Part shown: positions 26,979-62,288 of the stretch, piece by piece | Layout: each line of letters begins with the position of its first letter | Position numbering within the stretch: the first letter of the stretch is position 1 | DNA from: a virus | Virus record (IMG/VR): IMGVR_UViG_3300030099_005362 | DNA length: 64,000 bases | Direction: 5' to 3' (one strand) | Notes under the pieces: model-generated | Told to the model about the DNA's origin: nothing | What the model saw: the letters and a program-made list of their open reading frames with translations, nothing else | Database searches by the model: none | Program-made: the position numbers and the translations under genes

Positions 26979-27604
26979 CAGTCTCTCCCGTTACAGATTG
27001 CTTGTAAAGTAAACTTAAATGGTTCGCCCTCAATAGTGGCAACCAAGTCCCACATCTGTTGTGCGATTTCACGAATTTCTTTCTGTGCGTGCTCGCTGTT
27101 TCTTAGATTGATAAAATTAGCGAAGCTACGTATGTTAAACATTATGTCAGCTTGAATCTGACTGTTGTAAGTCTTAAAGAATCGTGCTGACTCTTTTGCT
27201 CGCTTGCGTCCCAGAACTGGTTCAAGTTCAGTTAAGCATTCATGATATAGTTCATTGCCAGCCTCGGTGTATTCTATTAGTTTGTTTTGCCATTTACGAA
27301 CCCAGTCATCTGGAACGTAATACTTATCTTCTTTTAATTCTTTATACCTAGCAGACTCAGCGTTAAGAGAACTAATCCGGTGCTTAAGTAGATGAATATG
27401 ACTGGCAATATCAGTATCAACAAGGAAATGCACCACTCCTTTCTCGAATGGGGTTTCATGTCCGTTGACCCAGAGCATTTCGATAAGTCTTTGTATTCGT
27501 CCTCTTTTTTCATCTGTAAGTTCTCTCGATGTAGAAGTCCATGCTGAACAGGCGATAATCTCATCGCTTCCGTAATATCCTAAAAGCTCTACTTTATTCT
27601 TCAT
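26978..27604 (-). CDS. thyX: flavin-dependent thymidylate synthase
   Basis: GHETPFE, LKHRISSLNAESARY, AKESARF, LRNSEHAQKEIR. Confidence 0.93.
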   Translation of the reverse strand: MKNKVELLGYYGSDEIIACSAWTSTSRELTDEKRGRIQRLIEMLWVNGHETPFEKGVVHFLVDTDIASHIHLLKHRISSLNAESARYKELKEDKYYVPDDWVRKWQNKLIEYTEAGNELYHECLTELEPVLGRKRAKESARFFKTYNSQIQADIMFNIRSFANFINLRNSEHAQKEIREIAQQMWDLVATIEGEPFKFTLQAICNGRD

Positions 27605-28517
27605 TAGTCTCCCTTAGCCAGTCTTGAAGTTTAACTTTTGGCTCCCATCCAAAGGACTTAATTTTGTCTATGTTTGCCTGTGTGAACCTAGCCTCTCCCG
27701 GTCTTTCTGGTATGAATGTATAATAAGGATCTTCTCCACCAATAATGTTGACTAGATCTAGGATAGCATAGCTCACCCCAGAACCAACATTAAAAAGCTC
27801 TCCACAAACAGCTTTGTCTTTACATAGTGCCATTGTTATATTGGCGTTGACAACATCTGATACATGTGTAAAGTCTCTTGTTTGCAGCCCATCACCAACA
27901 ACGGTCATGGGATTACCTTCTCTGTTTTGCTTTTGGAACAGCCCTATTACTGGTGCATACTGACCCCTTGTTGGCTGTCGTTCACCATAGACGTTAAAGT
28001 ATCTAAACGAAACGGTCTCTAGCCCATAGAGGGTATAGTACATTTTGCACAAATCTTCTCCAGCACGCTTGGCGACCGAATACGGATTCAGGCAGTCGGG
28101 CATCATTGTTTCGATCATTGGGGGTTTGTTTTTTAGTCCATATGCCGCCGATGTTGAAGAGTATACAACCCTACTAACCGCATGAAGACGAGAGGCCTCT
28201 AGCACATTAAGGGTTCCGACAGTATTAGTCTGGAGTGCTAGGGCTGGATCTTCTATAGTCGGTTGTATTCTAGACTCTGCTGCCAAATGAAAAACATAAT
28301 CAACACCCATAAACAGGTTGTGAATATCATCATAGTTGTTTATATCTAGCTCATAATATGAAGCGTTTTTTGACGGATTGTAGTAAAAGCTTTCGTGACA
28401 GTCTGCGGAGAGGTTGTCAATGACCGCAACTTCATGCCCCTGATATATGAGTGAATCAACCAAATTAGATCCGATGAATCCACATCCGCCAGTGACAATA
28501 CATTTACTCATTATCAA
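27594..28517 (-). CDS. NAD-dependent nucleotide-sugar epimerase/dehydratase
   Basis: VTGGCGFIGS, HLAA, YSVAK, RYFNVYG, TRDFTHV. Confidence 0.92.
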   Translation of the reverse strand: MIMSKCIVTGGCGFIGSNLVDSLIYQGHEVAVIDNLSADCHESFYYNPSKNASYYELDINNYDDIHNLFMGVDYVFHLAAESRIQPTIEDPALALQTNTVGTLNVLEASRLHAVSRVVYSSTSAAYGLKNKPPMIETMMPDCLNPYSVAKRAGEDLCKMYYTLYGLETVSFRYFNVYGERQPTRGQYAPVIGLFQKQNREGNPMTVVGDGLQTRDFTHVSDVVNANITMALCKDKAVCGELFNVGSGVSYAILDLVNIIGGEDPYYTFIPERPGEARFTQANIDKIKSFGWEPKVKLQDWLRETNEE

Positions 28518-39335: not shown

Positions 39336-39728
39336 TTAAAACCTAAAATGAAAGAAAAAACCTTGAAAGGGTGCTGGGTAAACTGGCACCGGCTGAGGTT
39401 GAATAATCACCGGAGGATAATAAGACGGAACTCTATAGTATCTAAAGTATGGATTTACAGGTCTGTAGTAATAGTCATAGAAACCAAAACCATGTTTAGT
39501 TTCGATCCTTGGTTGCTGTGGCTGAGTCTGGGGTCTCTGCCACTGTTGCTTTCCGGGAATCTGTGGTCTTGTTACGGGTGGTCGTGTAAAATCTCTAGGT
39601 ACGCTCTTTACAGTCGGAGGCTTGATAACCTTGCGTTCGGGCTGCTCTGCTTCGGCTGACAAAGGAACAAACAAGAGACATAGTATTGATGCTAAATATT
39701 TCATTATGACACCTCGCAGTCTGGACAC
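39336..39728 (-). CDS. secreted Pro/Tyr-rich low-complexity protein (likely start MKYLAS)
   Basis: signal peptide ending in AEA; Y/P-rich tail. Confidence 0.55.
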   Translation of the reverse strand: MSRLRGVIMKYLASILCLLFVPLSAEAEQPERKVIKPPTVKSVPRDFTRPPVTRPQIPGKQQWQRPQTQPQQPRIETKHGFGFYDYYYRPVNPYFRYYRVPSYYPPVIIQPQPVPVYPAPFQGFFFHFRF

Positions 39729-39898
39729 TCACAAGCGTCTTGACATATACACTCTTGAACTGGGCATGGGCATTCGTTTTCGCATATATCACAAATCACA
39801 GGATTCTCCTTTGTAAACATGTTTTTTACTTCGTCTTTATTGATAAATAGGATTGCACCCACAATCAATACAGCTAAAAAGGGTATTTTAAACTTCAT
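39704..39898 (-). CDS. small membrane-anchored metallothionein-like Cys-rich protein
   Basis: TM followed by CDICENECPCPVQECICQDACECPDC. Confidence 0.55.
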   Translation of the reverse strand: MKFKIPFLAVLIVGAILFINKDEVKNMFTKENPVICDICENECPCPVQECICQDACECPDCEVS

Positions 39899-39909
39899 GA
39901 TAGTTATCC

Positions 39910-41166
39910 TTATATAATAATGTCTGTTAAAACTTTGCCGCCGTCTACGATTTCGATAGGTCTTTCGCCCGGAGCCATTAGCTCTTTATCGGCAACTATT
40001 CCCAATCTATTGTAGATGGTAGCGGCCCAGTCCTCTATGTTGACTGGATTTTGGTCTGGCTCACTAGCAGTGGCGTTTGAGGTTCCATATGTCATTCCTC
40101 CCTTGATTCCACCACCAGCAAGCACCGTACTAAATACCTTTGGCCAGTGGTCTCTTCCTGCACGATTATTAATTTTCGGCGTTCTTCCAAATTCAGAAAC
40201 AACACAAACCAAGGTGGAATCCAGTAGGCCACGCTGGTCTAGGTCTTCGATAAGACTTGCAAACCCCTGATCGAAAGCTGGTAGCTGGCTATTCATACCA
40301 TTGGCTATGTTGTCGTGCATGTCCCATCCGCCATAGGTAAGAGTAACAAAACGTGTTCCAAACTCAACCAGTCTTCGGGCAAGAAGCATTCTGGCACCCG
40401 CAGTATTTCTGCCGTACTTGTCTCTTGTCTGTGCCGATTCTTTCTCTATATCAAAAGCGTCCTTTGCATTTTGATCTCCTATCAAGCTATATGCACGCTC
40501 ATAAAAAGAGTTCATCGCCTTTACAGAGTCGGCGTTCTGCTTTTTGTTAAAGTTGGTATTTACTACATTAAGTACACGCTGTCTTCTTGCAAACCTTTCA
40601 TCTGGAACCGGAAGTTTCAGATCTCTAACTTGGAAGTCGTTACTGGCAGGATCAGACCCTAAACCAAACCCAGAATATGAGCTACTTAAATATCCAGTAC
40701 CTGCAAATTCGTTAGGCTGGTTGGGGATACAGACATACGGAGGAAGGTTTTTGCGAGGCCCAAACTCATGTGCAACCACTGAACCCATTGATGGGTATTG
40801 AAGGGCTGGGCTAGGTCTATAACCAGTAAACATATTGTGTGTGCCACGCTCATGAGCAGCTTCTCCGTGGGTTAGACTTTTTATAATCGTTAACTTGTCT
40901 GTAATCTTAGCGGTTTTCTTCAAAAGCTCGCCCACACGGATACCCGGAGCGACCGTGTCTATGCTGCCCAACGGGCCACGATACTCAAGAGGAGCGAATG
41001 GCTTAGGATCCCATGTTTCCTGATGAGCCATTCCTCCCGGTAAGTATATAAAAATTATGCTTTTTGCTGGGCCTTCCACGCTTTCGTAGTGCTTCTGATC
41101 GGCCATAGCCAGTGAAGCACCAAAGCTACCTAAAATACCAGCGTGTAAAAAAGATCTTCTATCCAT
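39910..41166 (-). CDS. DUF1501 family protein with Tat signal
   Basis: MDRRSFL; GGMAHQETWDPKP; LARRLVEFG; WDMH; EFGRTP; GRDHW; start at 41166 (ORF track 41307). Confidence 0.9.
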   Translation of the reverse strand: MDRRSFLHAGILGSFGASLAMADQKHYESVEGPAKSIIFIYLPGGMAHQETWDPKPFAPLEYRGPLGSIDTVAPGIRVGELLKKTAKITDKLTIIKSLTHGEAAHERGTHNMFTGYRPSPALQYPSMGSVVAHEFGPRKNLPPYVCIPNQPNEFAGTGYLSSSYSGFGLGSDPASNDFQVRDLKLPVPDERFARRQRVLNVVNTNFNKKQNADSVKAMNSFYERAYSLIGDQNAKDAFDIEKESAQTRDKYGRNTAGARMLLARRLVEFGTRFVTLTYGGWDMHDNIANGMNSQLPAFDQGFASLIEDLDQRGLLDSTLVCVVSEFGRTPKINNRAGRDHWPKVFSTVLAGGGIKGGMTYGTSNATASEPDQNPVNIEDWAATIYNRLGIVADKELMAPGERPIEIVDGGKVLTDIII

Positions 41167-41176
41167 TACTATTTCC

Positions 41177-42379
41177 TTACCACATTCTACAAGACCAGTA
41201 TCGTGCTTTCCATTTAGGCCCCGGGGCCGTGTCGCACTTATGTCTTGCCCTAAAACTTTTTCTTCTTTCGGGATTGTCTCTTTTGATCTCCATATTAGGA
41301 TCACCAAAACGAACTATAACAACTTTTCCAGAACCGTTTTTGGTATAGACAGCAAACTTCTTTGGGCCATCTGGAGTTCTGAATGGTTTATTTAATGTGA
41401 CCTTCCTGCCTTGATACTCTGCGGATTTACCTTTGTATAAAAGCGGAGTGCCGTCCTTTTTGTAGTTACCTTTTCTATTATAGCTAAATCTTTCACCCGT
41501 TTTTGGATTTTCATATACATAAGCCGCCTTGGATTTTTTAGGATGTCCCTTTGGCAGGAGGTCATTGTCCTGTGTATAGGCCGAGTTTGAGGGCTTGCCA
41601 GTTCTGAGCAAAGTAAGAAAAGCGTTTACTCTAGCCATAGCCCATCCATCTCTAGACATTTTTGGTGCGTGGCTTGTTGAGTAGGCTCCGGCACCCCTAC
41701 GATACACAGCCTTAAGCATACCAAGAGTAGCCTTTGATCCTTTGCCTTTGGCGTTATGCTCTTTTACTTTTTTAGAAAGTCTTTCAGTAGTCTTCTTGCT
41801 GAACGTAATCTTGCCACTAGGGTTCTTGGCACTGTCTGGCTTGTTTTTCTTAGATCCCCTTTTCTGATCTTTTTTGGGGGCTGGTGTTCTACGTGGGTCT
41901 CCCTTTGGCGGCTTGTCAGCGTTCGCCTCTTCAGCATAAGATGGAGGGCCAAGTTTCTTTTGTTTCTTCGGCCCCTGTGCTTTCTTTAATTCTTCTGGGC
42001 TTGGTCTACCCTCTTTTTCGGTTTTGGCTGGCCTGTAGTCGTCGCCTTCTCTCTGCTTCTTTTTACGAATGTTTTCCCATAGCCCCGGTTTAGCCACGGA
42101 AATATCCCACTCTTCAGTGCTTTCCTGAAAGTCTACATAATCAGCCTCTGCGGGTACGTAGAAGTTGTCTTCATTTATATCTTCTGTATATCCAAATGTT
42201 TCTATGTTGTATTGCATATCGACAGAAGCCGATGTTGACAGCCCTTCAAGAGCCTTAGACATACAGACCGCTGTTCTTTGTTTTCCGTCTGGAAACTCTT
42301 TTGACACCTTGTTGTCTGACATACATCTAGACATAAAGTTTTCTCTAGACTCGTCTTCTCTTCTGGAAGGCAGTGGCAT
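41177..42379 (-). CDS. basic multi-module phage protein
   Basis: modules FMSRCM, PGLWENIRKK, LKAVYRRGAGAY..WAMARVN, GDPNM..RRKSFRARHKC..ARYWSC. Confidence 0.6.
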   Translation of the reverse strand: MPLPSRREDESRENFMSRCMSDNKVSKEFPDGKQRTAVCMSKALEGLSTSASVDMQYNIETFGYTEDINEDNFYVPAEADYVDFQESTEEWDISVAKPGLWENIRKKKQREGDDYRPAKTEKEGRPSPEELKKAQGPKKQKKLGPPSYAEEANADKPPKGDPRRTPAPKKDQKRGSKKNKPDSAKNPSGKITFSKKTTERLSKKVKEHNAKGKGSKATLGMLKAVYRRGAGAYSTSHAPKMSRDGWAMARVNAFLTLLRTGKPSNSAYTQDNDLLPKGHPKKSKAAYVYENPKTGERFSYNRKGNYKKDGTPLLYKGKSAEYQGRKVTLNKPFRTPDGPKKFAVYTKNGSGKVVIVRFGDPNMEIKRDNPERRKSFRARHKCDTAPGPKWKARYWSCRMW

Positions 42380-42397
42380 TTTAATCTCCTGTTTTTT

Positions 42398-43609
42398 TTA
42401 AAATAGTTCTTTTATTATTTTTCCGGAATTAGCTATCTTCATAGGTCTTCCGCTTTTACTTGTATAAGTTGTTTGCAACGAAATACCAAGTGCCTTGCAA
42501 ACGGAAGCCATGACATCCTGAGATGTATATGGTTCGGTTTCAACACGAGTACCGTCTGAGTTGGTTTCCCCAACAGCTATGCCGCCCTTCATGCCAGCAC
42601 CACCAACAACGACACTCCAGCTTCGTGCCCAGTGGTCACGGCCAGCGTTTTGGTTGATACGTGGAGTTCTACTAAATTCGCCCATCCATATGATAGCCGT
42701 ATCCTCTAGTAGTCCTCTTTGCTCTAAGTCCTCTACTAAGGCACTCATGCCCTGATCGAGCATAGGTAACTTTGTATCTCTTAATGTTGGGAAGATGTTT
42801 TGATGGTTGTCCCATCCTCCTAAGCCCACTTCAATAAAAGGCACACCAACTTCTACTAGCCTTCTGGCCATCAGACACCCCTTACCGAAACTATTGTCTC
42901 CATATCTTTCTTTGACGTTTTCTGGCTCACCTTCAACTTTCATAGCATCCATCTCTGAGCTTGTCAAAACATTAAATGTTTTACGTAGAACCTTTTGGTG
43001 ATCCTTTGCTAAAGCTCCTCTGCTACTATTGATAAAGTTAGTTTCTATTATGTCTAGTGCCTGTGCCCTCTGATAAAATCTTTGATCTATTTTCATATTT
43101 AGATTTCTGATTCTACCATCGCTGTTTACAACGAACGGCGAATATTCCGCACCTAAGAATCCAGCACCAGCACTTGGGCCATTTACAGAGACAAACTGAG
43201 GTATCATAAGTTCTGGTTTTTCAAGCTCTTTAGATAACACAGCACCGTAACTAGGATGAACCATGTTCGGGTTTGGGACATAGCCTGTGTGCATGTAGTA
43301 TCTGCCACGCATATGATCAGCTTCACGAGTACTCATACTACGAACAATCGCCATGTTATGCATTTGCTTTGCCATCAGAGGCATGTGTTCACTTATTTGA
43401 ACATCACCACTGGTTGCGATTGGCTTAAACGGGCCTCCCGTTGGTGCATCTGGTTTTAGATCCCAAATATCCATAGTAGAAGGGCCACCTCCCATCCATA
43501 AGAGAATGGCCGATTTACCGTTTTTCTTTAGCTGTTCTTCATTGGCCTTTAAGGTGCTAGTAAGACCCAACACGCTGGCCGTAGTAGCTAAAAAATCTCG
43601 TCTTCTCAT
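42398..43609 (-). CDS. DUF1501 family protein with Tat signal
   Basis: MRRRDFL; WMGGGPSTMDIWDLKP; ARRLVEVG; WDNH; EFSRTP; GRDHW. Confidence 0.92.
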   Translation of the reverse strand: MRRRDFLATTASVLGLTSTLKANEEQLKKNGKSAILLWMGGGPSTMDIWDLKPDAPTGGPFKPIATSGDVQISEHMPLMAKQMHNMAIVRSMSTREADHMRGRYYMHTGYVPNPNMVHPSYGAVLSKELEKPELMIPQFVSVNGPSAGAGFLGAEYSPFVVNSDGRIRNLNMKIDQRFYQRAQALDIIETNFINSSRGALAKDHQKVLRKTFNVLTSSEMDAMKVEGEPENVKERYGDNSFGKGCLMARRLVEVGVPFIEVGLGGWDNHQNIFPTLRDTKLPMLDQGMSALVEDLEQRGLLEDTAIIWMGEFSRTPRINQNAGRDHWARSWSVVVGGAGMKGGIAVGETNSDGTRVETEPYTSQDVMASVCKALGISLQTTYTSKSGRPMKIANSGKIIKELF

Positions 43610-44853
43610 AGTATTGCCTTTGCTTCTCCCTCTAGTAAATATCTCGGCCTTCCTCCATTATCTATTCTTTGTATAGACTTATCTATACCAAAGTGGTCAA
43701 ACAGAGTCGCCTGAAGATCTAATGGCCCTACAGGTTTTTGTGTTGGACTGTATGACCTATCGGACTCTCCAATAGTTCTACCGGACGCATAGTTTCCACC
43801 AGCCATGAGCATTGGAGTAATAGATGGCCAATGATCCCTTCCGGAATTTGCATTTATTTTCGTTCTGCCAAATTCCCCCGTGACAACTAGCAGTATCTTT
43901 TTATTGAGACCACGAGACCATACGTCTTCAAGGAATCCAGATATAGCCTTGTCGATTGGTGCGACTCTGGTTTTGAGAGAGTTAGATATGTTGCTATGCA
44001 TATCCCATCCACCATAATGAACTGTTATGAATCTCGTCCCATGTTCTACTAGCCTTCTAGCAAGAATCATTTGCTCGCCAATATCGTTAGCTTTGGTAGA
44101 TCCATACATCGCCCTAGTTTTATCGGACTCTTTGTCTGTTGCGAAAGCTTCTTTTGCGGATCCTAAGATTACATCGTAAGCCTGCCCCTTGTAAAAATCA
44201 ACAGAGTCCGCACTTGAGCCAGCCACACTTCTGGCGTCTAGCCCTCTGAGTAGGTTCTTTCTGGTGGAAAATCTGTCTAGCTCAACTCTTGGTGTAAGGT
44301 TATCTTTGTTAGAGGGGTCAAATGGCTTATATGCTCCACCAAGCCAAGCACCTTCGTCTCCTTCGATTTTGCCCTGTTTAACATAAGAGGGAACTCCGTT
44401 CTCTGGATGGTTTGCTCCGTACACAGCAGAAACCACTGAGCCAAAGGATGGATACTTTGCTATGGAGGTCGTGGTTCTCTCTGGGTTATAGTGACCGGTC
44501 ATCATGTAATGAGTGCCCTGTCTATGCGAAGAATCTCTATGAGAGAACGAGTTTACTACATTTAGTTTTTGAGTATGCTTGGAAAGCTCAGACCAATCGG
44601 CACCTAGATTTATGTTAGTCTTAGGGTCGTAGATAGATCCATTTACAGGTCTCCATTCTACCGGCACATCTTCTGTTGGTGCGTGAAAAGTTTCAAACTG
44701 AGTCGGCCCTCCTCCTAGCCAAACCCAAACAACAGACACGTCTTCACTGGCTTCCTGTGCTATTGCCGCTTCTGAAAGACCAGCCGCACTCATGGCCGTA
44801 CCTATTCCACCTATCCTTAAAAAATCTCTCCTGTTAAAAGTGAAGTCTATCAT
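43606..44853 (-). CDS. DUF1501 family protein with Tat signal
   Basis: NRRDFL; WLGGGPTQFETF; ARRLVEHG; WDMH; GEFGRT; GRDHW; start MIDFTF (ORF track 44871). Confidence 0.9.
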   Translation of the reverse strand: MIDFTFNRRDFLRIGGIGTAMSAAGLSEAAIAQEASEDVSVVWVWLGGGPTQFETFHAPTEDVPVEWRPVNGSIYDPKTNINLGADWSELSKHTQKLNVVNSFSHRDSSHRQGTHYMMTGHYNPERTTTSIAKYPSFGSVVSAVYGANHPENGVPSYVKQGKIEGDEGAWLGGAYKPFDPSNKDNLTPRVELDRFSTRKNLLRGLDARSVAGSSADSVDFYKGQAYDVILGSAKEAFATDKESDKTRAMYGSTKANDIGEQMILARRLVEHGTRFITVHYGGWDMHSNISNSLKTRVAPIDKAISGFLEDVWSRGLNKKILLVVTGEFGRTKINANSGRDHWPSITPMLMAGGNYASGRTIGESDRSYSPTQKPVGPLDLQATLFDHFGIDKSIQRIDNGGRPRYLLEGEAKAIL

Positions 44854-44875
44854 AATAAACCCTCTCTGCAAAAAA

Positions 44876-45067
44876 TTATTCTTCAGCTACTCGTAATGCG
44901 TTTGTATTGGGTACAGGCTCTGGGAGTATTTCCGAGTCTCTAGACATGGGCACAGGCATAGGAACCTGCTGTATTACTACCGGAACGTGTCTTATGTGTT
45001 CCCAGACAATATATGTTGTAAGACATATGGAAACACTAACAAAAAAACCAAACCAGAAATTTTTCAT
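44876..45067 (-). CDS. small single-TM protein
   Basis: hydrophobic N-terminus, Pro-rich tail. Confidence 0.55.
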   Translation of the reverse strand: MKNFWFGFFVSVSICLTTYIVWEHIRHVPVVIQQVPMPVPMSRDSEILPEPVPNTNALRVAEE

Positions 45068-45068
45068 T

Positions 45069-45743
45069 TTAACCTACCTTCTCCGGAAATAAGTCCGGAA
45101 ACAAATTATACTTTACATTTTCCCAAAGTGCCCCAGAAATCACCATCGACGCATCATTGTCTGAGGGGTAGTGTACACCCTGTAGACACCTAGCGTAGCC
45201 AGCCAGCCCTATCCTCCGAAAGAAGTAAGAACTATACTGTGGATACATCGCTGCCATTTGATAGGCCGCAAACGCAGCATAGGCAGTGTGCCCAGAAGGA
45301 TATGCTGGTGTATGATGCGAGTCTGTTTCTAGTATGTTTATTTTTATGCCAAAGTGAGGTGCAAGCTGCTCTGGTCTAGGTCTATTGTAGATACCTTTTA
45401 AATTGGTGATTACCGGATCAAAGGTTTTATAGAAAAGATCTCTAAATTCCTGCCTATCAAAGCTGAGGTTTTTCTCCTCTAGGAAGGGCATAAAAAGATC
45501 TAGCGGATCTTTGTCAACAAGCATAACCAAAGAAACCTGTTCCTCTGTTAGTCTCTGGGTTATTTGAGACAAAAACTTTAGTTCCTTGAGGGTTATGGCA
45601 GAGGTATTCTTAGGTGGTTCCGGTAAAACGGTTTTCCATCCTATTGTTATCTCGTCGCTTACCTCCAAAGATTTTGGTGATTCGGTGTATTTTATTGAAT
45701 CAATCTTTTTGGAGACTTCTGAAACTATGTTGTTGGGATCCAT
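45069..45743 (-). CDS. PAP2-superfamily phosphatase
   Basis: KxxxxRPRP, YPSGH, RCLQGVHYPSD. Confidence 0.85.
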   Translation of the reverse strand: MDPNNIVSEVSKKIDSIKYTESPKSLEVSDEITIGWKTVLPEPPKNTSAITLKELKFLSQITQRLTEEQVSLVMLVDKDPLDLFMPFLEEKNLSFDRQEFRDLFYKTFDPVITNLKGIYNRPRPEQLAPHFGIKINILETDSHHTPAYPSGHTAYAAFAAYQMAAMYPQYSSYFFRRIGLAGYARCLQGVHYPSDNDASMVISGALWENVKYNLFPDLFPEKVG

Positions 45744-45802: not shown

Positions 45803-46210
45803 TTAGAAACAATCCCTCAATACATCCTGAACGGTTGCGTGTCGGTCTTTTGACCCACAGCTATTAACAAGGTTTTTTGCATCTTTTGCGGTGTGTCCCA
45901 GAGAACGCAGTGCGGCTACAGCATCCGATCCTATTGATGTATCAGAAAATAGCTCAACTTTCTGCTTCTTCTGGGGGGTCTTCTTGCCCTTCTTCTCGGC
46001 CCGCTCAACGGTTTTTGGTCGCGTTTTGTAAACACTCCGATAGACAACCCTGTCAACCTCAACGGGAACGTACTGCACCATCGGCTTCTGCGGCCAGATC
46101 TCAATTATGTACGATAACATTCTGCAAAAAAACGCCAAGGTTATTGGTAGCGTAAAGCATAGTATTACCCAAAAGGCGATGTCTCCATTAAATGTTCCTG
46201 TGTTTTGCAT
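45803..46210 (-). CDS. membrane protein with RuvA C-terminal-like domain
   Basis: TM; DAVAALRSLGHTAKDAKNLV. Confidence 0.5.
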   Translation of the reverse strand: MQNTGTFNGDIAFWVILCFTLPITLAFFCRMLSYIIEIWPQKPMVQYVPVEVDRVVYRSVYKTRPKTVERAEKKGKKTPQKKQKVELFSDTSIGSDAVAALRSLGHTAKDAKNLVNSCGSKDRHATVQDVLRDCF

Positions 46211-46211
46211 T

Positions 46212-46514
46212 TTATACTTCCTCTTCTTTTGGCTTCCTGTATGTATTGCCTTTGTTCTGTAGCTTTTTAACTTCTTGCTCCAGCTTGAAGGTCTCTCTTT
46301 TTGCTTTTCTCTCTTTTATATTTTCGGCAAGTCTCGCATCTTTCTTTAGCTTGCCTCGTCTTTTTTTGGCCAGTTCTTTAGCTGCCTTCTTTTTTCCTCT
46401 CGCCAAGTCCTTCTGTTGTTTCTTTCTGTCTGGTTTCTTCATTGGGTGTCTCTCAATCCTATTAGTACGAGTCCGACATTTGCTAGGGCGTATGACATCC
46501 AAACCAGTGCCCAA
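46212..46514 (-). CDS. highly basic hypothetical protein (likely start MKKPDR)
   Basis: K/R-rich ORF. Confidence 0.55.
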   Translation of the reverse strand: MGTGLDVIRPSKCRTRTNRIERHPMKKPDRKKQQKDLARGKKKAAKELAKKRRGKLKKDARLAENIKERKAKRETFKLEQEVKKLQNKGNTYRKPKEEEV

Positions 46515-46557
46515 GCAAAATCCTTCTTAAACATATAGCACACTGCGACTATAAAAT

Positions 46558-46585
46558 ATAACGCCCCCACTAAGGAGGGCATTAT
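46558..46585 (-). terminator. putative terminator after hsp20
   Basis: ATAATGCCCTC-loop-GGGGGCGTTAT stem then ATTTT. Confidence 0.5.
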
Positions 46586-46611
46586 AAAAATCAGCGAGTC
46601 CAGAGTTTTCA

Positions 46612-47025
46612 TTACTTTATTTCAATCACTTTAGGTTGTTTTTCCGGAGGAAGAACTTCTTCCAGTGATACCTTAAGTAGGCCGTCTTCTAGTTCCGCAG
46701 ATTTTACCTCGATGTGCTCGCCAAGGCTAAAGGTTCTTTTGAATCTCTTAGTAGAGATCCCTTTGTGTAAGTGTTTTGTTTCTCCCGAAGGATCGTTGTA
46801 TCCCTCTATAGACAGAACGCCATCCTCCACAACAACGCTAACGTTTTCTTTCTTGTAACCAGCTATCGCTAGCTCCACAAGGATCTCGTTTTCGTTTTGT
46901 ATGATATTGAACGGAGGGAAATTGGTGCGTTCTACGTTAGACAGTCGGTCAAATATCCGACTCATTCCGATGGAATTAGAGAAGAGTTCTCTAAAGAGTT
47001 GTTCGTTTTTTGATAGTGCATTCAT
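46612..47025 (-). CDS. small heat shock protein Hsp20 (IbpA-like)
   Basis: FPPFNI, LAIAGY, LHKGIS.KRFKRTFSL, A.LEDGLLKV, PEKQPKVIEIK. Confidence 0.93.
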   Translation of the reverse strand: MNALSKNEQLFRELFSNSIGMSRIFDRLSNVERTNFPPFNIIQNENEILVELAIAGYKKENVSVVVEDGVLSIEGYNDPSGETKHLHKGISTKRFKRTFSLGEHIEVKSAELEDGLLKVSLEEVLPPEKQPKVIEIK

Positions 47026-47032
47026 ATTTTTT

Positions 47033-47079
47033 CTCCTAATTAAAGCGAGGTGTTTGACTGCCCAACATTAGGCACAGTC
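47033..47079 (-). promoter_or_regulatory. ROSE-like RNA thermometer in the hsp20 leader
   Basis: CUCGCU-UUAAUU-AGGAG hairpin pairs the SD with a bulged G; preceded by another hairpin. Confidence 0.6.
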
Positions 47080-47089
47080 TGTATAAAAA

Positions 47090-47280
47090 TGGAAGGGTGG
47101 GATTGCCTTTAACATACCCACAAATTTCGGAGCCAGTTATGGCATTGTTCCTACTTTAACCACTATCTTAACCATGTATAGCACTTGCCCGTCCGGTTAA
47201 GCCTCATGTGCTGTTACCATCACTGGCTTACTCTCGTATTTTCAGCCACCTTCCTTAGACTAGGAAGCTATCCCAGTCTA
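47090..47280 (-). ncRNA. structured non-coding RNA with tRNA-like ends, long helix and pseudoknot (possibly manA-like)
   Basis: several complementary segments directly downstream of a consensus promoter; no credible ORF. Confidence 0.65.
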
Positions 47281-47284
47281 ATAT

Positions 47285-47313
47285 ATTATAGCATATTCAA
47301 TGATCTTTGTCAA
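47285..47313 (-). promoter_or_regulatory. consensus sigma70 promoter with extended -10
   Basis: TTGACA-17 nt-(TGc)TATAAT. Confidence 0.85.
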
Positions 47314-47506
47314 GTCTTTTTTCAATTTTTTCTTTGGTTTTTAGTAGCTTCTTTTTTCTTCTGTTTATTTTTTTGGCTTCAGAGGTTGTTATGTCTGGGT
47401 TATAAAGACGATCCGAAAGTATGTGGATTCTGTCCTCTATGCTCTTTATCTGTCTGTTTGTCTTGTTTATTTTATTCATTTTTATAAACCTAGAACGTAG
47501 CGGCAC
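47297..47506 (-). CDS. small basic hypothetical protein (likely start MNKINK)
   Basis: K-rich ORF. Confidence 0.45.
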   Translation of the reverse strand: MPLRSRFIKMNKINKTNRQIKSIEDRIHILSDRLYNPDITTSEAKKINRRKKKLLKTKEKIEKRLDKDH

Positions 47507-47531
47507 CGCCGCAAGAACGAATGCCGCTACG
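47496..47531 (-). terminator. GC-rich hairpin after ssb (possible terminator)
   Basis: CGTAGCGGCA...TGCCGCTACG inverted repeat; weak U tail. Confidence 0.5.
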
Positions 47532-47545
47532 AACAGGATTGCAGC

Positions 47546-47893
47546 TTACGACTGTTCCGTAGACGCTAGTTCACGACTAGGTTTTACAACTTTGGAGAAA
47601 GTGCTAGGAAGGATACTGTAAGAGGTGCGAGACACCCCGTTTTTGTCTTCCCAATTTCTTTGACGCAATCTTCCGTCAATGATTACACGATCACCTTTGC
47701 TTAGTTGCACGTTTTGTGCGTAGGCTGCGTGACTACCCCATCCATCCACGTCAAGATACACGGTCTCTTCCCGACCGTTGCCAACAGATTCGTTGACTGC
47801 AATTCTGAACGTGACAAGATCCTTTTCAGAGATCTCTTTGTATTCCGGATCTTTGGTGAGGTTTCCCTTGAAAACTACTCTGTTATTAAACAT
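47546..47893 (-). CDS. ssb: single-stranded DNA-binding protein
   Basis: NRVVFKGNLTKDPE, FRIAVN, KGDRVIIDGRLRQRNWEDKNG. Confidence 0.9.
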   Translation of the reverse strand: MFNNRVVFKGNLTKDPEYKEISEKDLVTFRIAVNESVGNGREETVYLDVDGWGSHAAYAQNVQLSKGDRVIIDGRLRQRNWEDKNGVSRTSYSILPSTFSKVVKPSRELASTEQS

Positions 47894-47918
47894 AAAATTA
47901 AACTCCCTAAAATTAGAA

Positions 47919-48137
47919 TTAAGCGTTTGAAGATGCTCTACGGTAGAGTGCCTTCTTAGCTAGGTTACGACTTTTATCTACTCCGTGATTCTTAAGTAGC
48001 GATCTTGCGATGCTAGAGTTTGACGTTCCGGCGAAAGAGGAAACAAATTCCTTTCCCGTCATATCGCCTTTTGCAAAGTTAGAAACAGTACTTACATTAC
48101 GCTTCGTATTAAGAAGCGAGTTCCAATTTGTAGTCAT
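47919..48137 (-). CDS. hypothetical protein
   Basis: ORF with AGGAG RBS. Confidence 0.55.
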   Translation of the reverse strand: MTTNWNSLLNTKRNVSTVSNFAKGDMTGKEFVSSFAGTSNSSIARSLLKNHGVDKSRNLAKKALYRRASSNA

Positions 48138-48583
48138 TAAGACTCTCCTTTTCTTTTCTTTAAAGAAACACTAATTAATTTATGTGGACTATTATACATT
48201 CTGTCCAACATAGATGATTTTACTTCCTTACCCATGTATAGGAATTCGTATCCACTTGCATGTCTACCCTTACCTACAACAACTAAGCCGTTTTCCTTTA
48301 CGTGTTTTATTTGGTAAACTCCGGGATTTGTGAAATATAGCCTCTCACCGCTTTCCTTTAGATAGTAAGTGCCAGATCTACCAACAACCCTGACATGATC
48401 TCCGGGGTTTAGTTCTTCTTTCCAATTCTCAACAAATCTTTTCTTCTTCTTATAAAAAACGTAGCCGCACTTTTTACATGTCGCTAGTCTTGCGTGACAC
48501 TCTGTATTACAATCTGGGCACGCCTTTACCGGTTGTTTTCTTTTCTTCGCCATCTTTGTTTCCTCGCTTGGTCGGTTGGTCAT
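48137..48583 (-). CDS. zinc-ribbon-containing basic protein
   Basis: CPDC...CKKCG. Confidence 0.6.
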   Translation of the reverse strand: MTNRPSEETKMAKKRKQPVKACPDCNTECHARLATCKKCGYVFYKKKKRFVENWKEELNPGDHVRVVGRSGTYYLKESGERLYFTNPGVYQIKHVKENGLVVVGKGRHASGYEFLYMGKEVKSSMLDRMYNSPHKLISVSLKKRKGES

Positions 48584-48590
48584 TACTATT

Positions 48591-48619
48591 ATTATATATC
48601 AACTATCGTCGTTTGTCAA
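48591..48619 (-). promoter_or_regulatory. consensus sigma70 promoter
   Basis: TTGACA-17 nt-TATAAT. Confidence 0.8.
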
Positions 48620-48623
48620 TCGG

Positions 48624-49142
48624 TTATTTAGATTTTTTCTGAATTTTTTCTGAGGCTTCTATCAAGTGTTTCGCAGATAGGTCGTCTTTTGAGATGAATA
48701 TAAGGTCAATCTTTTCTTCAATCATCTTATATATATTCACGTAGTTTGGGGAGCTACTGCACATCTTTGGGTTGGAAATGTCTGAAAAATATATCTTTTC
48801 TATTCCACACTGGTAAAGCATCTGTAGGCAAGATAGGCATGGAATGGCCGTTATGTATGCCGAGGCACCTAATGTAGATCTACCAATCCTTACTGAATTA
48901 TATATGGCGTTTGCTTCGGCGTGTATCATGAAGGGATATTTTTCGGGTCTGGTGTTTGGCAAGCAGTCGTCGTCTATATCTCTTATAAAGCCATTATAAC
49001 CAGACGATATTACCGTTCTGTCTTTTACTAGAACACACCCGCATTGCGTTTGTGTATCGTGGCTTCTTCTAGACCATAGAGTAGCCTCTTCAAAAAATAT
49101 GTTGTCCCAATCGCTTGGTTTCTTTTTATTTAATATTACCAT
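48624..49142 (-). CDS. dCMP deaminase
   Basis: GYNG, IHAEANAI, PCLSC; start MVILNK just after the tmRNA. Confidence 0.9.
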   Translation of the reverse strand: MVILNKKKPSDWDNIFFEEATLWSRRSHDTQTQCGCVLVKDRTVISSGYNGFIRDIDDDCLPNTRPEKYPFMIHAEANAIYNSVRIGRSTLGASAYITAIPCLSCLQMLYQCGIEKIYFSDISNPKMCSSSPNYVNIYKMIEEKIDLIFISKDDLSAKHLIEASEKIQKKSK

Positions 49143-54892: not shown

Positions 54893-55951
54893 TTAAATCG
54901 AGTTATCAAAGTGTGTTCTACCTACTTTTATAGCCTTAGCACATTTTGGCAAATCCTTAAGGGACGTGGCTCCAACATAAGCACAACAGCTACGTAGACC
55001 TCCTTTAACGTCACTCATAACAGAGTCTGCTGATCCCTTGTATGGCACAATTTTAACTCTACCCTCGCTGGTAGCATAGTTATTCATGCCTCCGCTATGT
55101 TTATCCTGTGCTTTTTCGGACGACATACCGTAAAATTTAAGACCCGTTTTCTTTTCTTCAGTAGAATATTGCCACTCTCCCTCACATTCGTCTGTTCCTG
55201 CGAACATACCGCCCAGCATCACAAAGTCGGCATTAGCAGCGAAGGCCTTGCAAATATCAGCAGGGATTCTACATCCTCCATCGGCACATACCAGCCCCAT
55301 CTTTCCATCGCCGCTTTTTAGTCCGTGAGCAGCATGGCTACATTCAATAATTGCTGAAAGCTGTGGGTATCCTACTCCAGTTTTTAGTCTTGTTGTACAG
55401 GCACTTCCCGGTCCAATACCTATCTTTACAATATCAACACCGCCATGAAGAACCAACTCCTGAACCATCTCAGGTGTACAAACGTTGCCAGCCATAATGA
55501 TTGAATCTGGAAAATGTGATCTAACCAACAAACACCATTCTACAAATTTTTCAGTGTATCCATTGGCAATATCTATGCAAATATTTGGGCTAGAGTGGAT
55601 TCCTTTTTTGATGGCGTGTAGTTTCTCTAAATCGTTCTTATTCATTCCTATAGAAACCCACACGCTGGACTCTATATTGTAGTATTTAAAGTACTCCACA
55701 ACCCTGTCAGGATCGTGGTACTTGTGAAGGCATGTTACCGCTTCGTGTTTTGACAAAGCAGCACCCATATTAAAGGTGCCAGTAGTATCCATATTGGCCG
55801 CAATAATAGGGAGTCCATGCCACTCTTTTGGCGAGTGAAAAAACTTGAAGGTTCTTTTTAATTGTACTTCCTTTCTACTGGCGGAAGGCGAGCGTGCTGG
55901 AACCAATAGGATGTCGTCAAAGTCTAATTTAGTTTCGTCTACTATTTTCAT
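54893..55951 (-). CDS. guaC: GMP reductase
   Basis: [49 protein letters not shown]. Confidence 0.93.
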
Positions 55952-60251: not shown

Positions 60252-61084
60252 GTGCCGTCTCTCTTTTTTCTGTTTTCAGATATGGATAGAGGTCTTGTAT
60301 TTTTATAGTTCATTACCTTGTAAACATTTTCTTTGTTGGTTAGGTCTACCGAGTTAAACGGAATTATATGATCTAGCTCCCACACCTCTCCCCGATTGTC
60401 CCAAGTCCAACCTTCTTCAAACTGAGACTCTATCCACTCCAAAAAGAAGTCCCTTGAGCAGCCGAGAGAATCTCTTATAAATGAGAACTGAGGACTTGCT
60501 CTTCTTCCGCTTTTTACATTGTAGTAGTCATTGTCTCTTATTTTAATATTGCTTTTATCAAGAACGTATTGTCTGACATCGTTTAGTTCTGCGTCTTGTC
60601 CCAAGTGATCCAGTGCCTCTCTAACCATATTAGACTTATTTAGGCTTCTCTTTGGTTCTCTTCTTATGAATTGATTTAATCCAGAACCCAATCTTGATCT
60701 TATTCTTGCCTGTTGATTATTTTGCTTTTCTTCTTTTCGACCAAGATTGTAACAATTTTTACACTTTGATCCACCGCTGTCTCCTTTTTGCCTAGCAAAA
60801 CTTCTATGATGTATAGAAGCACAACGTATACATAGGAACTCCTGTTCATGCACTCCCTCTATGATCGTACCTGACTGGAGCTGTGTGTTCCGAAATGTGG
60901 AGTCCTCTATTTTAGATTGATGTATCTTAAAGGATATAGTCCTACCACAGTCCGTGTCAAACTCAGCTATTAGCCCAGTTCTGTTTGCGGCATATAGGGC
61001 GACTAATCTTATTTTCTTTTTCCACCAGCCAGTGTCCCACGTTATGGTATTCTGCTCTAAAAGTTTTTCACGCTTAGTTTTCAT
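60242..61084 (-). CDS. HNH-type endonuclease with zinc finger
   Basis: CIRC..CKNC; WELDHIIP...NTRPL...ENRKK. Confidence 0.75.
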   Translation of the reverse strand: MKTKREKLLEQNTITWDTGWWKKKIRLVALYAANRTGLIAEFDTDCGRTISFKIHQSKIEDSTFRNTQLQSGTIIEGVHEQEFLCIRCASIHHRSFARQKGDSGGSKCKNCYNLGRKEEKQNNQQARIRSRLGSGLNQFIRREPKRSLNKSNMVREALDHLGQDAELNDVRQYVLDKSNIKIRDNDYYNVKSGRRASPQFSFIRDSLGCSRDFFLEWIESQFEEGWTWDNRGEVWELDHIIPFNSVDLTNKENVYKVMNYKNTRPLSISENRKKRDGTCP

Positions 61085-62288
61085 TTCTCCAGCCGTTCAT
61101 TAGTGTATTCAATGAGTTGCCACCCAGAAATCCCTTTATCTCATCATCAGAATATCTTTCCAAAGAATGTAAATATCTGGTTAATCTGGGAAGTTCTGAT
61201 ATGTCAACCATCTCATCAGGAGGATCGGTAAACCCGTCATAGTCCGTTCCCAATCCGACTACATTAGCTCCGGCAACATCTCTCATGTGACTAATTGTTT
61301 GTTCAATATACTTTAGCCCCAACGGTGTGTCAACTGGGCTTATCCAATAATTCATAAAGATAACACCTACAACGCCGCCATGATCTGCAATCCACTTTAG
61401 TTCCCAATCTTCTAGGTTGTATGGATCACGGTTAATTTCAAAGCATCCAGTGTGGCTAGATATAACGAGGCTCTGCTTGTCGCCAACTATTTCGTATACT
61501 TCTTTTCTAGCTTTGGGTGTACAGTGAGCAATATCAATTAACATTCCAAGCTCGGTCATTCTCTGTACGACCTTAGCACCTAAAGCGGTAAGCCCCTTAT
61601 TCATGTCCCATCCGGCCATGAGGTTTTTCCAGTTACTTCTTTTGATCCCGTAGGTGGGGTAAGGAAACACCGGAGGAGCTACTTTGTTAGGATAGAAGTG
61701 TGCCAGCGTCAGATATGCTACACCTCTTTGGGATAAGTATTCAAGGTTACTCAAAACCTCTGACTCTATGTCTTGGCTAATTTCTGATGTCTCGCTCTCT
61801 ATTCCTTCTAGGCTATGACCGCCCTCAACCGAATGTATAAAGGCTATATTCTTTTCAGCCAAAATATCTATCAAAGAGTTCTTGTCTTTGGCAAACTTTA
61901 TTTTTCTTTCTGGTTCTTTGTTGTTATACGACTCAGCCTCTTTCTCCATTGCATCCATCATAGACACGGTAGCGTCAAAATAGAAAGGATCGAAGACACG
62001 CTTCTTCGTTTCTGGTGATAAAGTCAAAGCCAGTTTTACAAGACCCTGATCTTCTATCCATTCTCGCTCAGGTATATAACACGTTGAGAAAACAACATCA
62101 ACGCCACCCTTGTCTAATAAGGGAAATGTGCTTCTCTGACTCAAAGGCCAGAAGGCTCTCTTAAATAAAGATGCTAAAAATTTAGTCTTGCTTGTTGTTA
62201 AGTCTCTGTCGAGGAGAAACTTTTTTAAGACTGCGTGATTGTGAAGGTCTACAACAGTAGCGTCTTCGTGTAATTGCTGCCAAGTCAT
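61074..62288 (-). CDS. membrane dipeptidase family (peptidase M19) metallohydrolase
   Basis: DLHNH, VEGGH, LTLAH, IDIAH, SSH, GTDYDG, LGGN. Confidence 0.85.
   Translation of the reverse strand: MTWQQLHEDATVVDLHNHAVLKKFLLDRDLTTSKTKFLASLFKRAFWPLSQRSTFPLLDKGGVDVVFSTCYIPEREWIEDQGLVKLALTLSPETKKRVFDPFYFDATVSMMDAMEKEAESYNNKEPERKIKFAKDKNSLIDILAEKNIAFIHSVEGGHSLEGIESETSEISQDIESEVLSNLEYLSQRGVAYLTLAHFYPNKVAPPVFPYPTYGIKRSNWKNLMAGWDMNKGLTALGAKVVQRMTELGMLIDIAHCTPKARKEVYEIVGDKQSLVISSHTGCFEINRDPYNLEDWELKWIADHGGVVGVIFMNYWISPVDTPLGLKYIEQTISHMRDVAGANVVGLGTDYDGFTDPPDEMVDISELPRLTRYLHSLERYSDDEIKGFLGGNSLNTLMNGWRNEN

Follow-up and report, generated by a model that had tools for sequence, protein, structure and literature searches.

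The viral record IMGVR_UViG_3300030099_005362 from IMG/VR provides a 64,000-nucleotide stretch of DNA (the window), in which all genes are encoded on the minus strand. An earlier note, made from the sequence of the window, described the region at 39910-45743 as a trio of exported DUF1501 proteins forming one unit with a PAP2 phosphatase and a small transmembrane (TM) protein. We find that the three DUF1501 genes, here called paralogues a, b, and c, are intact, phage-borne, and under purifying selection, and that b and c at least are separate captures of host genes. The reading we favor, with moderate confidence, is that a large marine phage of lytic type carries them as part of a host-derived auxiliary cassette, with b and c acting together with the PSCyt2/PSD1 proteins of the host. 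The three genes, each with a twin-arginine translocation (Tat) signal, are as follows.

43606..44850, minus strand: DUF1501 paralogue a, 414 aa from ATG; PF07394; Tat signal NRRDFL
42398..43609, minus strand: DUF1501 paralogue b, 403 aa; PF07394; Tat signal RRRDFL
39910..41166, minus strand: DUF1501 paralogue c, 418 aa from ATG; PF07394; Tat signal DRRSFL

The open reading frame (ORF) of a is open as far as a TTG at 44871, and its orthologues start MLDF..NRRDFL. To judge by orthologues, translation of a probably begins at the ATG at 44850 and that of c at the ATG at 41166, and use of the longer TTG ORFs is improbable. A DUF5824-like gene (41177-42379) separates b from c, so the trio is not contiguous.

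Each protein is matched end to end by Pfam PF07394, for which the gathering cutoff is 27 bits: c (39910-41169) with an E value of 2e-113 (379.7 bits, profile positions 1-390 of 390), b (42398-43609) with 6e-103 (345.3 bits, 2-390 of 390), and a (43606-44871) with 2e-63 (215.1 bits, 3-384 of 390). The description of three full-length copies, each keeping an RR signal and the GGWDxH, EF(G/S)RT, and GRDHW motifs, therefore stands. Their mutual identity is 32-37%. All three motifs are invariant across the five paralogue groups that we recognize in related phages, and the RR motif is kept in all 166 phage DUF1501 copies extracted. Behind it, a, b, and c each have a hydrophobic stretch and an A-x-A-like site (in c, a cleavage-like site between AMA and DQ); a also gives a weak match to the Pfam TAT_signal family. 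All three have the sequence features of Tat substrates, and export is predicted on that basis. TatC was found in three Planctomycetota genomes but in neither of the two phage genomes searched. The signal peptide of host b-type proteins resembles that of one phage b subgroup. In one phage subgroup (L036-L041), adjacent c and b genes, such as L036:1689-2954 and L036:2976-4184, have identical first 20 residues, MKRREFLTSTAGVLGLLQTL, although the mature proteins are only about 35% identical; the common signal peptide looks like the result of a signal-peptide swap or of gene conversion between neighboring paralogues.

The viral character of the window is plain from its other genes, which encode the large and small subunits of ribonucleotide reductase, a split DNA polymerase, a DnaB-like helicase, a primase, a RecA-like protein, and a PD-(D/E)XK nuclease. 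A scan of IMG/VR with b matched 141 related stretches, among them complete phage genomes of 145-197 kb, and 80 loci, on contigs of up to 197 kb, were examined. Related phage stretches have 1-4 DUF1501 copies, drawn from five paralogue groups (a-e); the same range holds for five related records with a CheckV completeness of 94-100%, one of which has direct terminal repeats. Paralogue b is the core copy, present in 80 of 80 loci at 64-94% identity. Paralogue a has 33 phage orthologues (57-82% identity), the phage orthologues of c are 71-97% identical, and two further groups, d (e.g., L006:7484-8764) and e (e.g., L002:8164-9423), are not represented in the window. In a close relative from a sponge metagenome (run X19), 57 nt at 39707-39765, inside a 64-aa Cys-rich ORF, are replaced by 1368 nt; the size and position of this insert fit paralogue d, which L006 and other loci place between c and a Pro-rich ORF.

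Pairwise dN/dS is low in every group (a, 0.064; b, 0.029; c, 0.047; d, 0.035; e, 0.069), and no internal stop was found in the DUF1501 copies examined. The stretch is contained in 20 public sequencing runs from 7 studies (marine, hydrothermal vent, and sponge), 2 of the 20 being metatranscriptomes. RNA-library contigs are 100% identical to the window over c, the DUF5824-like gene, and the stretch from a through a 63-aa ORF to the PAP2 gene; they span 39998-40801 of c, 41160-42355 of the DUF5824-like gene, and 43736-45250 (contig X17, covering a, the 63-aa ORF, and PAP2). Their depth is uneven (5-54, with 471 on the transfer-messenger RNA [tmRNA] gene), whereas that of the DNA run of the same sample is flat at ∼9.5. 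This unevenness, in contigs of one sample, is consistent with transcription.

It is hardly credible that the trio is an artefact, whether from host contamination, chimeric assembly, or passenger genes in decay, even though b and c are highly identical to planctomycete genes and G+C content is slightly raised at 40-46 kb (0.43-0.45 vs about 0.40). The same genes recur in the same phage neighborhood on 80 independent viral contigs from many samples, complete genomes included; DNA contigs of several studies span the cassette junctions; and the flanks of cellular orthologues have no other gene in common with the window. Contamination, chimerism, and decay are rejected because of the viral loci, the complete genomes, the purifying selection (dN/dS of 0.03-0.07), and the RNA contigs, so the earlier note's own worries about contamination, a chimeric region, or relaxed selection are not borne out. 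Host-derived, intact, under purifying selection, and covered by RNA contigs of one sample, the cassette has the properties expected of phage auxiliary metabolic genes.

Among 50,697 isolate phage records, megablast with 22 kb of the window returned no match, and tblastn of b against the same records gave just a 26% partial match in a Ralstonia phage. Neither PHROGs nor NCBIfam has a family for these proteins; BFVD holds one auto-named "DUF1501 domain-containing protein" from an uncultured phage, at 15% identity. In a protein homologue search, the matches listed were all phage orthologues, of at least 72% identity. No description of phage-encoded DUF1501 was found in the literature on DUF1501, on DUF1549/DUF1553, or on planctomycete phage auxiliary genes, and the sole phage paper found to name DUF1501 does so for a weak match in a 61-aa protein. 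Outside this phage lineage, the nearest relatives of a and b are P0146 (L162:8001-9239) and P0217 (L161:2438-3658). Their contigs are phage-like, with many small same-strand ORFs and matches to PDDEXK, Lar_restr_allev, and glycosyltransferase families, and Arctic marine samples are included among their sources. DUF1501 thus seems to be present in more than one phage lineage.

Cellular relatives point to where the genes came from. A search with c of 185,579 species genomes gave 80 cellular loci at 39-71% identity, nearly all in metagenome-assembled genomes (MAGs) of Planctomycetota and Verrucomicrobiota. Five genomes of the Planctomycetes-Verrucomicrobia-Chlamydiae (PVC) group (G001-G005) each have one clear c orthologue (59-68% identity), those belonging to gene modules of G001-G003 being 66-68% identical. 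For b, identity is 72% to each of two copies in the complete Pirellulaceae chromosome G001, 68% to a second Pirellulaceae MAG (G002), 59% to another planctomycete (G003), and only 38-39% to two Verrucomicrobiota. Paralogue a is the most divergent group: its best cellular match, in G001, reaches 43%; no a-type orthologue was found at an E value of ≤1e-110 in 301 Planctomycetota genomes with 6 candidates scored per genome, which is to be read as "not found" and not as "absent"; and the cluster representatives (50% identity) nearest to it are carried by other phage-like contigs. The closest cellular-looking homologue of c, at 71%, is on a 56-kb contig binned as Chitinophaga (CAZMOU010000007.1, a Bacteroidota MAG). 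This contig may be misbinned, the other close matches of c being PVC sequences, and its 6-kb flanks have no other gene in common with the window.

In the trees, each phage group is monophyletic, with cellular sequences between the groups. Phage c nests inside Pirellulales-type c sequences, and phage b is sister to the G001 pair, followed by G002 and then G003. The topology in which all phage copies form one clade is rejected by an approximately unbiased (AU) test (lnL difference of 2019, P = 2.5e-55); the constraint group was chosen after a tree had been seen, and the effect is very large. Paralogues b and c were captured separately, each being far closer to a distinct cellular orthologue group than to the other. 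On these identities and trees, b and c at least are independent captures of already-diverged paralogues, b coming from a Pirellulaceae-type host gene. Paralogue a belongs to an older clade, all of whose close relatives sit on phage-like contigs, and it may act alone. The phylogeny that the earlier note had proposed, to separate captures from duplication, therefore argues against duplication within the phage as the source of the paralogues, with an older origin for a. By similarity of these genes, the host is most likely a planctomycete of the Pirellulaceae/Pirellulales kind.

In such hosts, b- and c-type genes have characteristic neighbors. Both b-type copies of G001 directly follow a PSCyt2-PSD1 (DUF1549/DUF1553) gene, and the c-type gene of G001 (L176) heads a cluster of DUF1501, PPC-domain protein, and PSCyt2/PSD1 genes. 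DUF1501-PPC-PSCyt2/PSD1 and related architectures have been described in Planctomycetes, Verrucomicrobia, and Lentisphaerae, with their function left open (Kamneva et al. 2012, PMC3542564).

The partners were sought in the phage and not found. PSCyt2 (PF07583) gave no match in 5 complete or near-complete phage genomes, and PSD1 (PF07587) none in those 5 or in 3 partial phage records; as a positive control, PF07587 gave 67 matches in G001, a single Pirellulaceae genome that also has roughly 90 DUF1501 candidates. When four host PSCyt/PSD1 proteins and one PPC protein were compared by tblastn with the window and the 80 loci, there was no match. Nor is a PSCyt/PSD1, PPC, or DUF1800 protein among the ten largest window proteins that had been unannotated. 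The earlier observation that DUF1549/DUF1553 genes are missing from the window is borne out by the tblastn search.

We then consider what the proteins may do. An AlphaFold2 model of c, built from a 134-sequence alignment, has a pLDDT of 94.1 and a pTM of 0.91. Foldseek with this model returned sulfatases, LtaS, and alkaline phosphatase at low TM-scores. VIA-align gave Z scores of 19.5 to ENPP6 and to the Xanthomonas nucleotide pyrophosphatase/phosphodiesterase (NPP), 19.0 to PafA, and about 17 to sulfatases; the best match was 5ege (Z of 19.5, root mean square deviation of 3.1 over 244 residues), and 68 chains had a Z of ≥8. A Protein Data Bank (PDB) sequence search with c alone gave no usable match. 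Given the structural matches, the fold is of the alkaline-phosphatase superfamily and lies far from any solved member; the kinship of DUF1501 to the alkaline phosphatase/sulfatase superfamily, asserted in the earlier note, is thus supported at the level of the core fold.

The predicted active site differs from that of canonical superfamily members. Residues are numbered here on the 419-aa translation of 39910-41169, and the mapping uses profile alignments of DUF1501 with the PDB, with 18 sulfatases of G001 (probability, 94%), and with PVC Phosphodiest proteins (probability, 66%). At the profile level, DUF1501 aligns with the helix-strand segment in which the second metal-ligand pair lies. The D-H/D-N metal pair of sulfatases aligns with E326-F327, which D340-H341 follow by 14 residues, and the sulfatase DD after strand 1 aligns with L-x-GG. 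The formylglycine Cys of sulfatases and the Thr of NPPs both fall opposite position 104, where b and c have Ala, a and e have Ser, and d has Gly; the formylglycine motif CxPxR (C/S-x-P-x-R) occurs in no DUF1501 copy. Other positions are strictly kept: His106, Asp283/His285, Glu326, Arg329/Thr330, and Arg339/Asp340/His341 are invariant in the phage groups and at least 90% conserved family-wide, and position 51 is always acidic. In the c model, His106 sits at the N terminus of helix 106-115.

This pattern of invariant residues suggests a metal site but speaks against the canonical covalent mechanism, and the chemistry is probably metal dependent. Since position 104 is Ala in b and c and an invariant His follows two residues later, the mechanism is probably not of the Ser, Thr, or formylglycine covalent type, and with the canonical nucleophile position variable, a plain phosphatase or sulfatase is not supported. 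In the "Phosphodiest" (PF01663) proteins of G001-G005 (L212-L216), S-E-Y-G stands where NPPs have S-D-H-G. Set beside the E-F-G of DUF1501, this is the same change of Asp to Glu and of His to an aromatic residue, and the two may have a variant metal site in common.

These residues bear directly on whether the proteins are stand-alone periplasmic scavengers, that is, self-sufficient phosphatases, phosphodiesterases, or sulfatases that free phosphate or sulfate or desulfate glycans, with the paralogues serving different substrates. The fold lends itself to this idea, its best matches being NPP-type phosphodiesterases and PafA (Z of 19-19.5) and then sulfatases, as do the conserved Asp/His motifs, the Ser at the canonical nucleophile position in a and e, Tat export of the kind used by PhoX and PhoD, and the occurrence of P0146 and P0217 as single copies with no partner nearby. 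We nevertheless judge it unlikely. At the nucleophile position, b and c have Ala and d has Gly, with no CxPxR; GG and E-F stand opposite the DD and D-H/N ligands of sulfatases; no fewer than 99 true sulfatases are already encoded by the likely host; and in the host, the orthologues of b and c are in each case paired with PSCyt2/PSD1 genes. Among the three functions guessed at in the earlier note, scavenging by a standard enzyme is accordingly disfavored, and hijacking of host DUF1501 complexes fits best, since orthologues of b and c adjoin PSCyt2/PSD1 genes.

The favored reading, an auxiliary cassette whose b and c products act with host PSCyt2/PSD1, would work as follows. During infection, the DUF1501 proteins would fold in the cytoplasm and probably acquire metal there; their export to the periplasm would depend on the Tat system of the host, which is missing from the phage; in the periplasm, b and c would serve as extra or replacement catalytic subunits that partner host PSCyt2/PSD1; and a periplasmic substrate-processing step would be sustained or redirected, favoring phage production. 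Benefit to phage production is the usual logic of auxiliary metabolic genes. A more specific form of the proposal, which we put forward tentatively and would not be surprised to see fail, holds that the DUF1501 proteins are orphan subunits docking on the heme-motif PSCyt2/PSD1 proteins of the host, with a His replacing the nucleophile in a metal center, and that they take over a periplasmic and possibly redox-linked system.

Several points weigh against the favored reading. Docking on PSCyt2/PSD1, members of an uncharacterized system, is deduced from gene neighborhood in the host. The nucleophile mapping comes from profile alignments (94% and 66%) and not from coordinates, and the host assignment from gene similarity and not from CRISPR, Hi-C, or culture. 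The RNA evidence consists of contigs of one sample and may include some DNA carryover. P0131, the nearest relative of the d group (itself related to a), has no PSD1 neighbor on its short contig; since it lacks one and a lacks a close cellular orthologue, some copies may work alone.

The genes around the trio bear on whether it belongs to a larger functional unit. Intergenic gaps in the run from 46514 down to 39336 are -25 to +59 nt, and a terminator-like hairpin is the probable upstream boundary of that run, as judged from the sequence. The remaining features of this region are given below.

45803..46210, minus strand: 135-aa protein with an N-terminal TM segment and a weak RuvA_C/UBA-like C terminus
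45069..45743, minus strand: PAP2-superfamily phosphatase, 224 aa; PF01569, E value of 9e-14
44876..45067, minus strand: 63-aa ORF with one N-terminal hydrophobic segment (hydrophobic 19-mer, residues 4-22)
41177..42379, minus strand: Lys-rich DUF5824-like protein, 400 aa; PF19141, E value of 6e-6; phrog_7595, E value of 9e-14
39704..39898, minus strand: 64-aa exported or TM protein with a hydrophobic N terminus and a Cys-rich tail, downstream of c
39336..39728, minus strand: 130-aa Pro-rich protein with a signal-like N terminus (hydrophobic segment, residues 4-26)
46557..46586, minus strand: terminator-like hairpin closing the hsp20 unit (consensus scan only)

The PAP2 protein scores 51.8 bits against a PF01569 cutoff of 27.2 and has the three catalytic PAP2 motifs (NRPRP, YPSGH, and AR-x5-H-x3-D). 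It contains no hydrophobic 19-mer and is without a signal or TM segment. The ESM Atlas clusters in which it is placed have 148, 380, and 97 members, 95-100% of them viral, and it has no PHROG; no subfamily was assigned, because its best NCBIfam matches, PhoC and SepP, are far below their cutoffs. In 24 of the 80 loci, a PAP2 gene is about 2 genes or fewer away from a DUF1501 gene, on varying sides: upstream of a, downstream of b, or before the DUF5824-like gene. It is thus a common soluble viral PAP2/VCPO-like protein that is loosely linked to the cassette. The 63-aa ORF has no homologue in the 80 related loci even at an E value of ≤1, and in the syntenic loci L008 and L047, PAP2 abuts a with a gap of 17-23 nt; that the 63-aa ORF is a conserved part of the unit is doubtful. 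The single unit of DUF1501, PAP2, and small TM protein proposed earlier is consequently not supported.

Other neighbors are kept more regularly. The DUF5824-like protein has a Cys-containing N-terminal motif, a DUF5824-like middle, and the C-terminal phage module phrog_7595; most related loci have its gene within the DUF1501 cluster or next to it, often in a shortened or split form. Homologues of the 64-aa Cys-rich protein, 45-84% identical, adjoin c in many loci, and homologues of the 130-aa Pro-rich protein, 52-88% identical, occur in related loci; these two conserved neighbors do not figure in the earlier note. The 135-aa protein, the first gene past the upstream terminator-like hairpin, has weak homologues in L047 and L008. 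The PAP2, DUF5824-like, and small exported proteins are encoded next to the DUF1501 genes, and any function in common with them is putative.

Such a neighborhood raises the idea of envelope remodeling or superinfection exclusion, in which DUF1501, PAP2, small exported or TM proteins, and glycosyltransferases would alter glycans or lipids and so block adsorption or ease release. The cassette does contain many small signal- or TM-bearing ORFs, the window encodes several GT1 glycosyltransferases and a sugar epimerase, and EptA, LtaS, and PbgA, members of the same superfamily that act on envelope molecules, are among the fold matches. Yet the DUF1501 proteins are without a membrane anchor, PAP2 is a predicted cytoplasmic protein from a family general to viruses, relatives do not conserve the small TM ORF, and the host orthologues are in PSCyt2/PSD1 modules and not in envelope-synthesis loci. 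We consider this explanation improbable.

Further observations concern the rest of the window. The sugar epimerase is an NAD-dependent epimerase/dehydratase (27594-28517, E value of 1e-56), and two more host-like genes encode an IMP dehydrogenase (IMPDH)/GMP-reductase-family protein (54893-55951, E value of 3e-61) and a Peptidase_M19 membrane dipeptidase (61074-62288, E value of 4e-51). The highest RNA-library contig depth outside the tmRNA, about 54 vs 5-18 over the cassette, is at 46353-48702, which covers hsp20 (46612-47025). The phage tmRNA (49153-49494) has the tag VEENFALAA, which differs from the PVC tags in four genomes (planctomycete AENNLAMVA, ADENLALAA, and ANSNYALAA; verrucomicrobial ANNEPELALAA). 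Contig depth on the tmRNA is far above its surroundings in RNA and DNA runs alike, probably because contigs of other organisms' tmRNAs sit on its conserved ends.

DUF1501 and PSCyt/PSD1 are among the largest planctomycete and verrucomicrobial gene families and have been uncharacterized since 2004-2012. That phages keep only the DUF1501 half marks this half as the one that would limit or steer activity, and the phage copies are a minimal natural variant set for biochemistry. If docking on PSCyt2/PSD1 is real, the cassette would represent a novel sort of auxiliary gene, contributing just one member of a two-protein host machine, and would offer a first experimental entry point to DUF1501/PSD1 function. 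The window also links an abundant uncultured phage lineage to Pirellulaceae-type hosts, for which, to our knowledge, hardly any phages are known, and it adds a class of auxiliary gene with no counterpart in PHROGs or in isolate phage genomes.

The closest parallel among phage auxiliary genes is with cyanophage pstS and phoA, host-derived exported nutrient-acquisition genes of known function that act alone or with known transporters. Here too, host-derived genes for exported proteins are kept under selection in a lytic marine phage, presumably because they maintain the physiology of the host while it is infected. The DUF1501 proteins, however, are predicted to be Tat exported, are present as 1-4 divergent copies, are uncharacterized, and are missing their normal large partner.

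Among enzymes, NPPs, PafA, and S1 sulfatases have the same core fold, and DUF1501 has a D283/H285 pair, a candidate for one of the ligand pairs of NPPs and alkaline phosphatase. Identity to NPPs, PafA, and S1 sulfatases is only 9-16%, however; the nucleophile is not conserved, E-F replaces D-H and GG replaces DD, and DUF1501 has an extra invariant GGWDxH, GRDHW, and His at a helix N terminus. PhoX and PhoD are Tat-dependent periplasmic metalloenzymes whose cofactor is loaded before export; their folds are unrelated to that of DUF1501, and the analogy extends to the use of Tat only.

The nearest known system overall is the PVC DUF1501-PSCyt1/PSCyt2/PSD1 modules (PMC3542564). Phage b and c are orthologous to module DUF1501 proteins (59-72% identity) and have the same RR signal and motifs, and the host contexts seen here, DUF1501-PPC-PSCyt2/PSD1 and PSCyt2/PSD1-DUF1501, match the published architectures. 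The phage differs in having only the DUF1501 member, with no PSCyt/PSD1 gene in the window, the 80 loci, or the phage records searched, and in that DUF1501 genes of several modules are gathered into one phage cassette.

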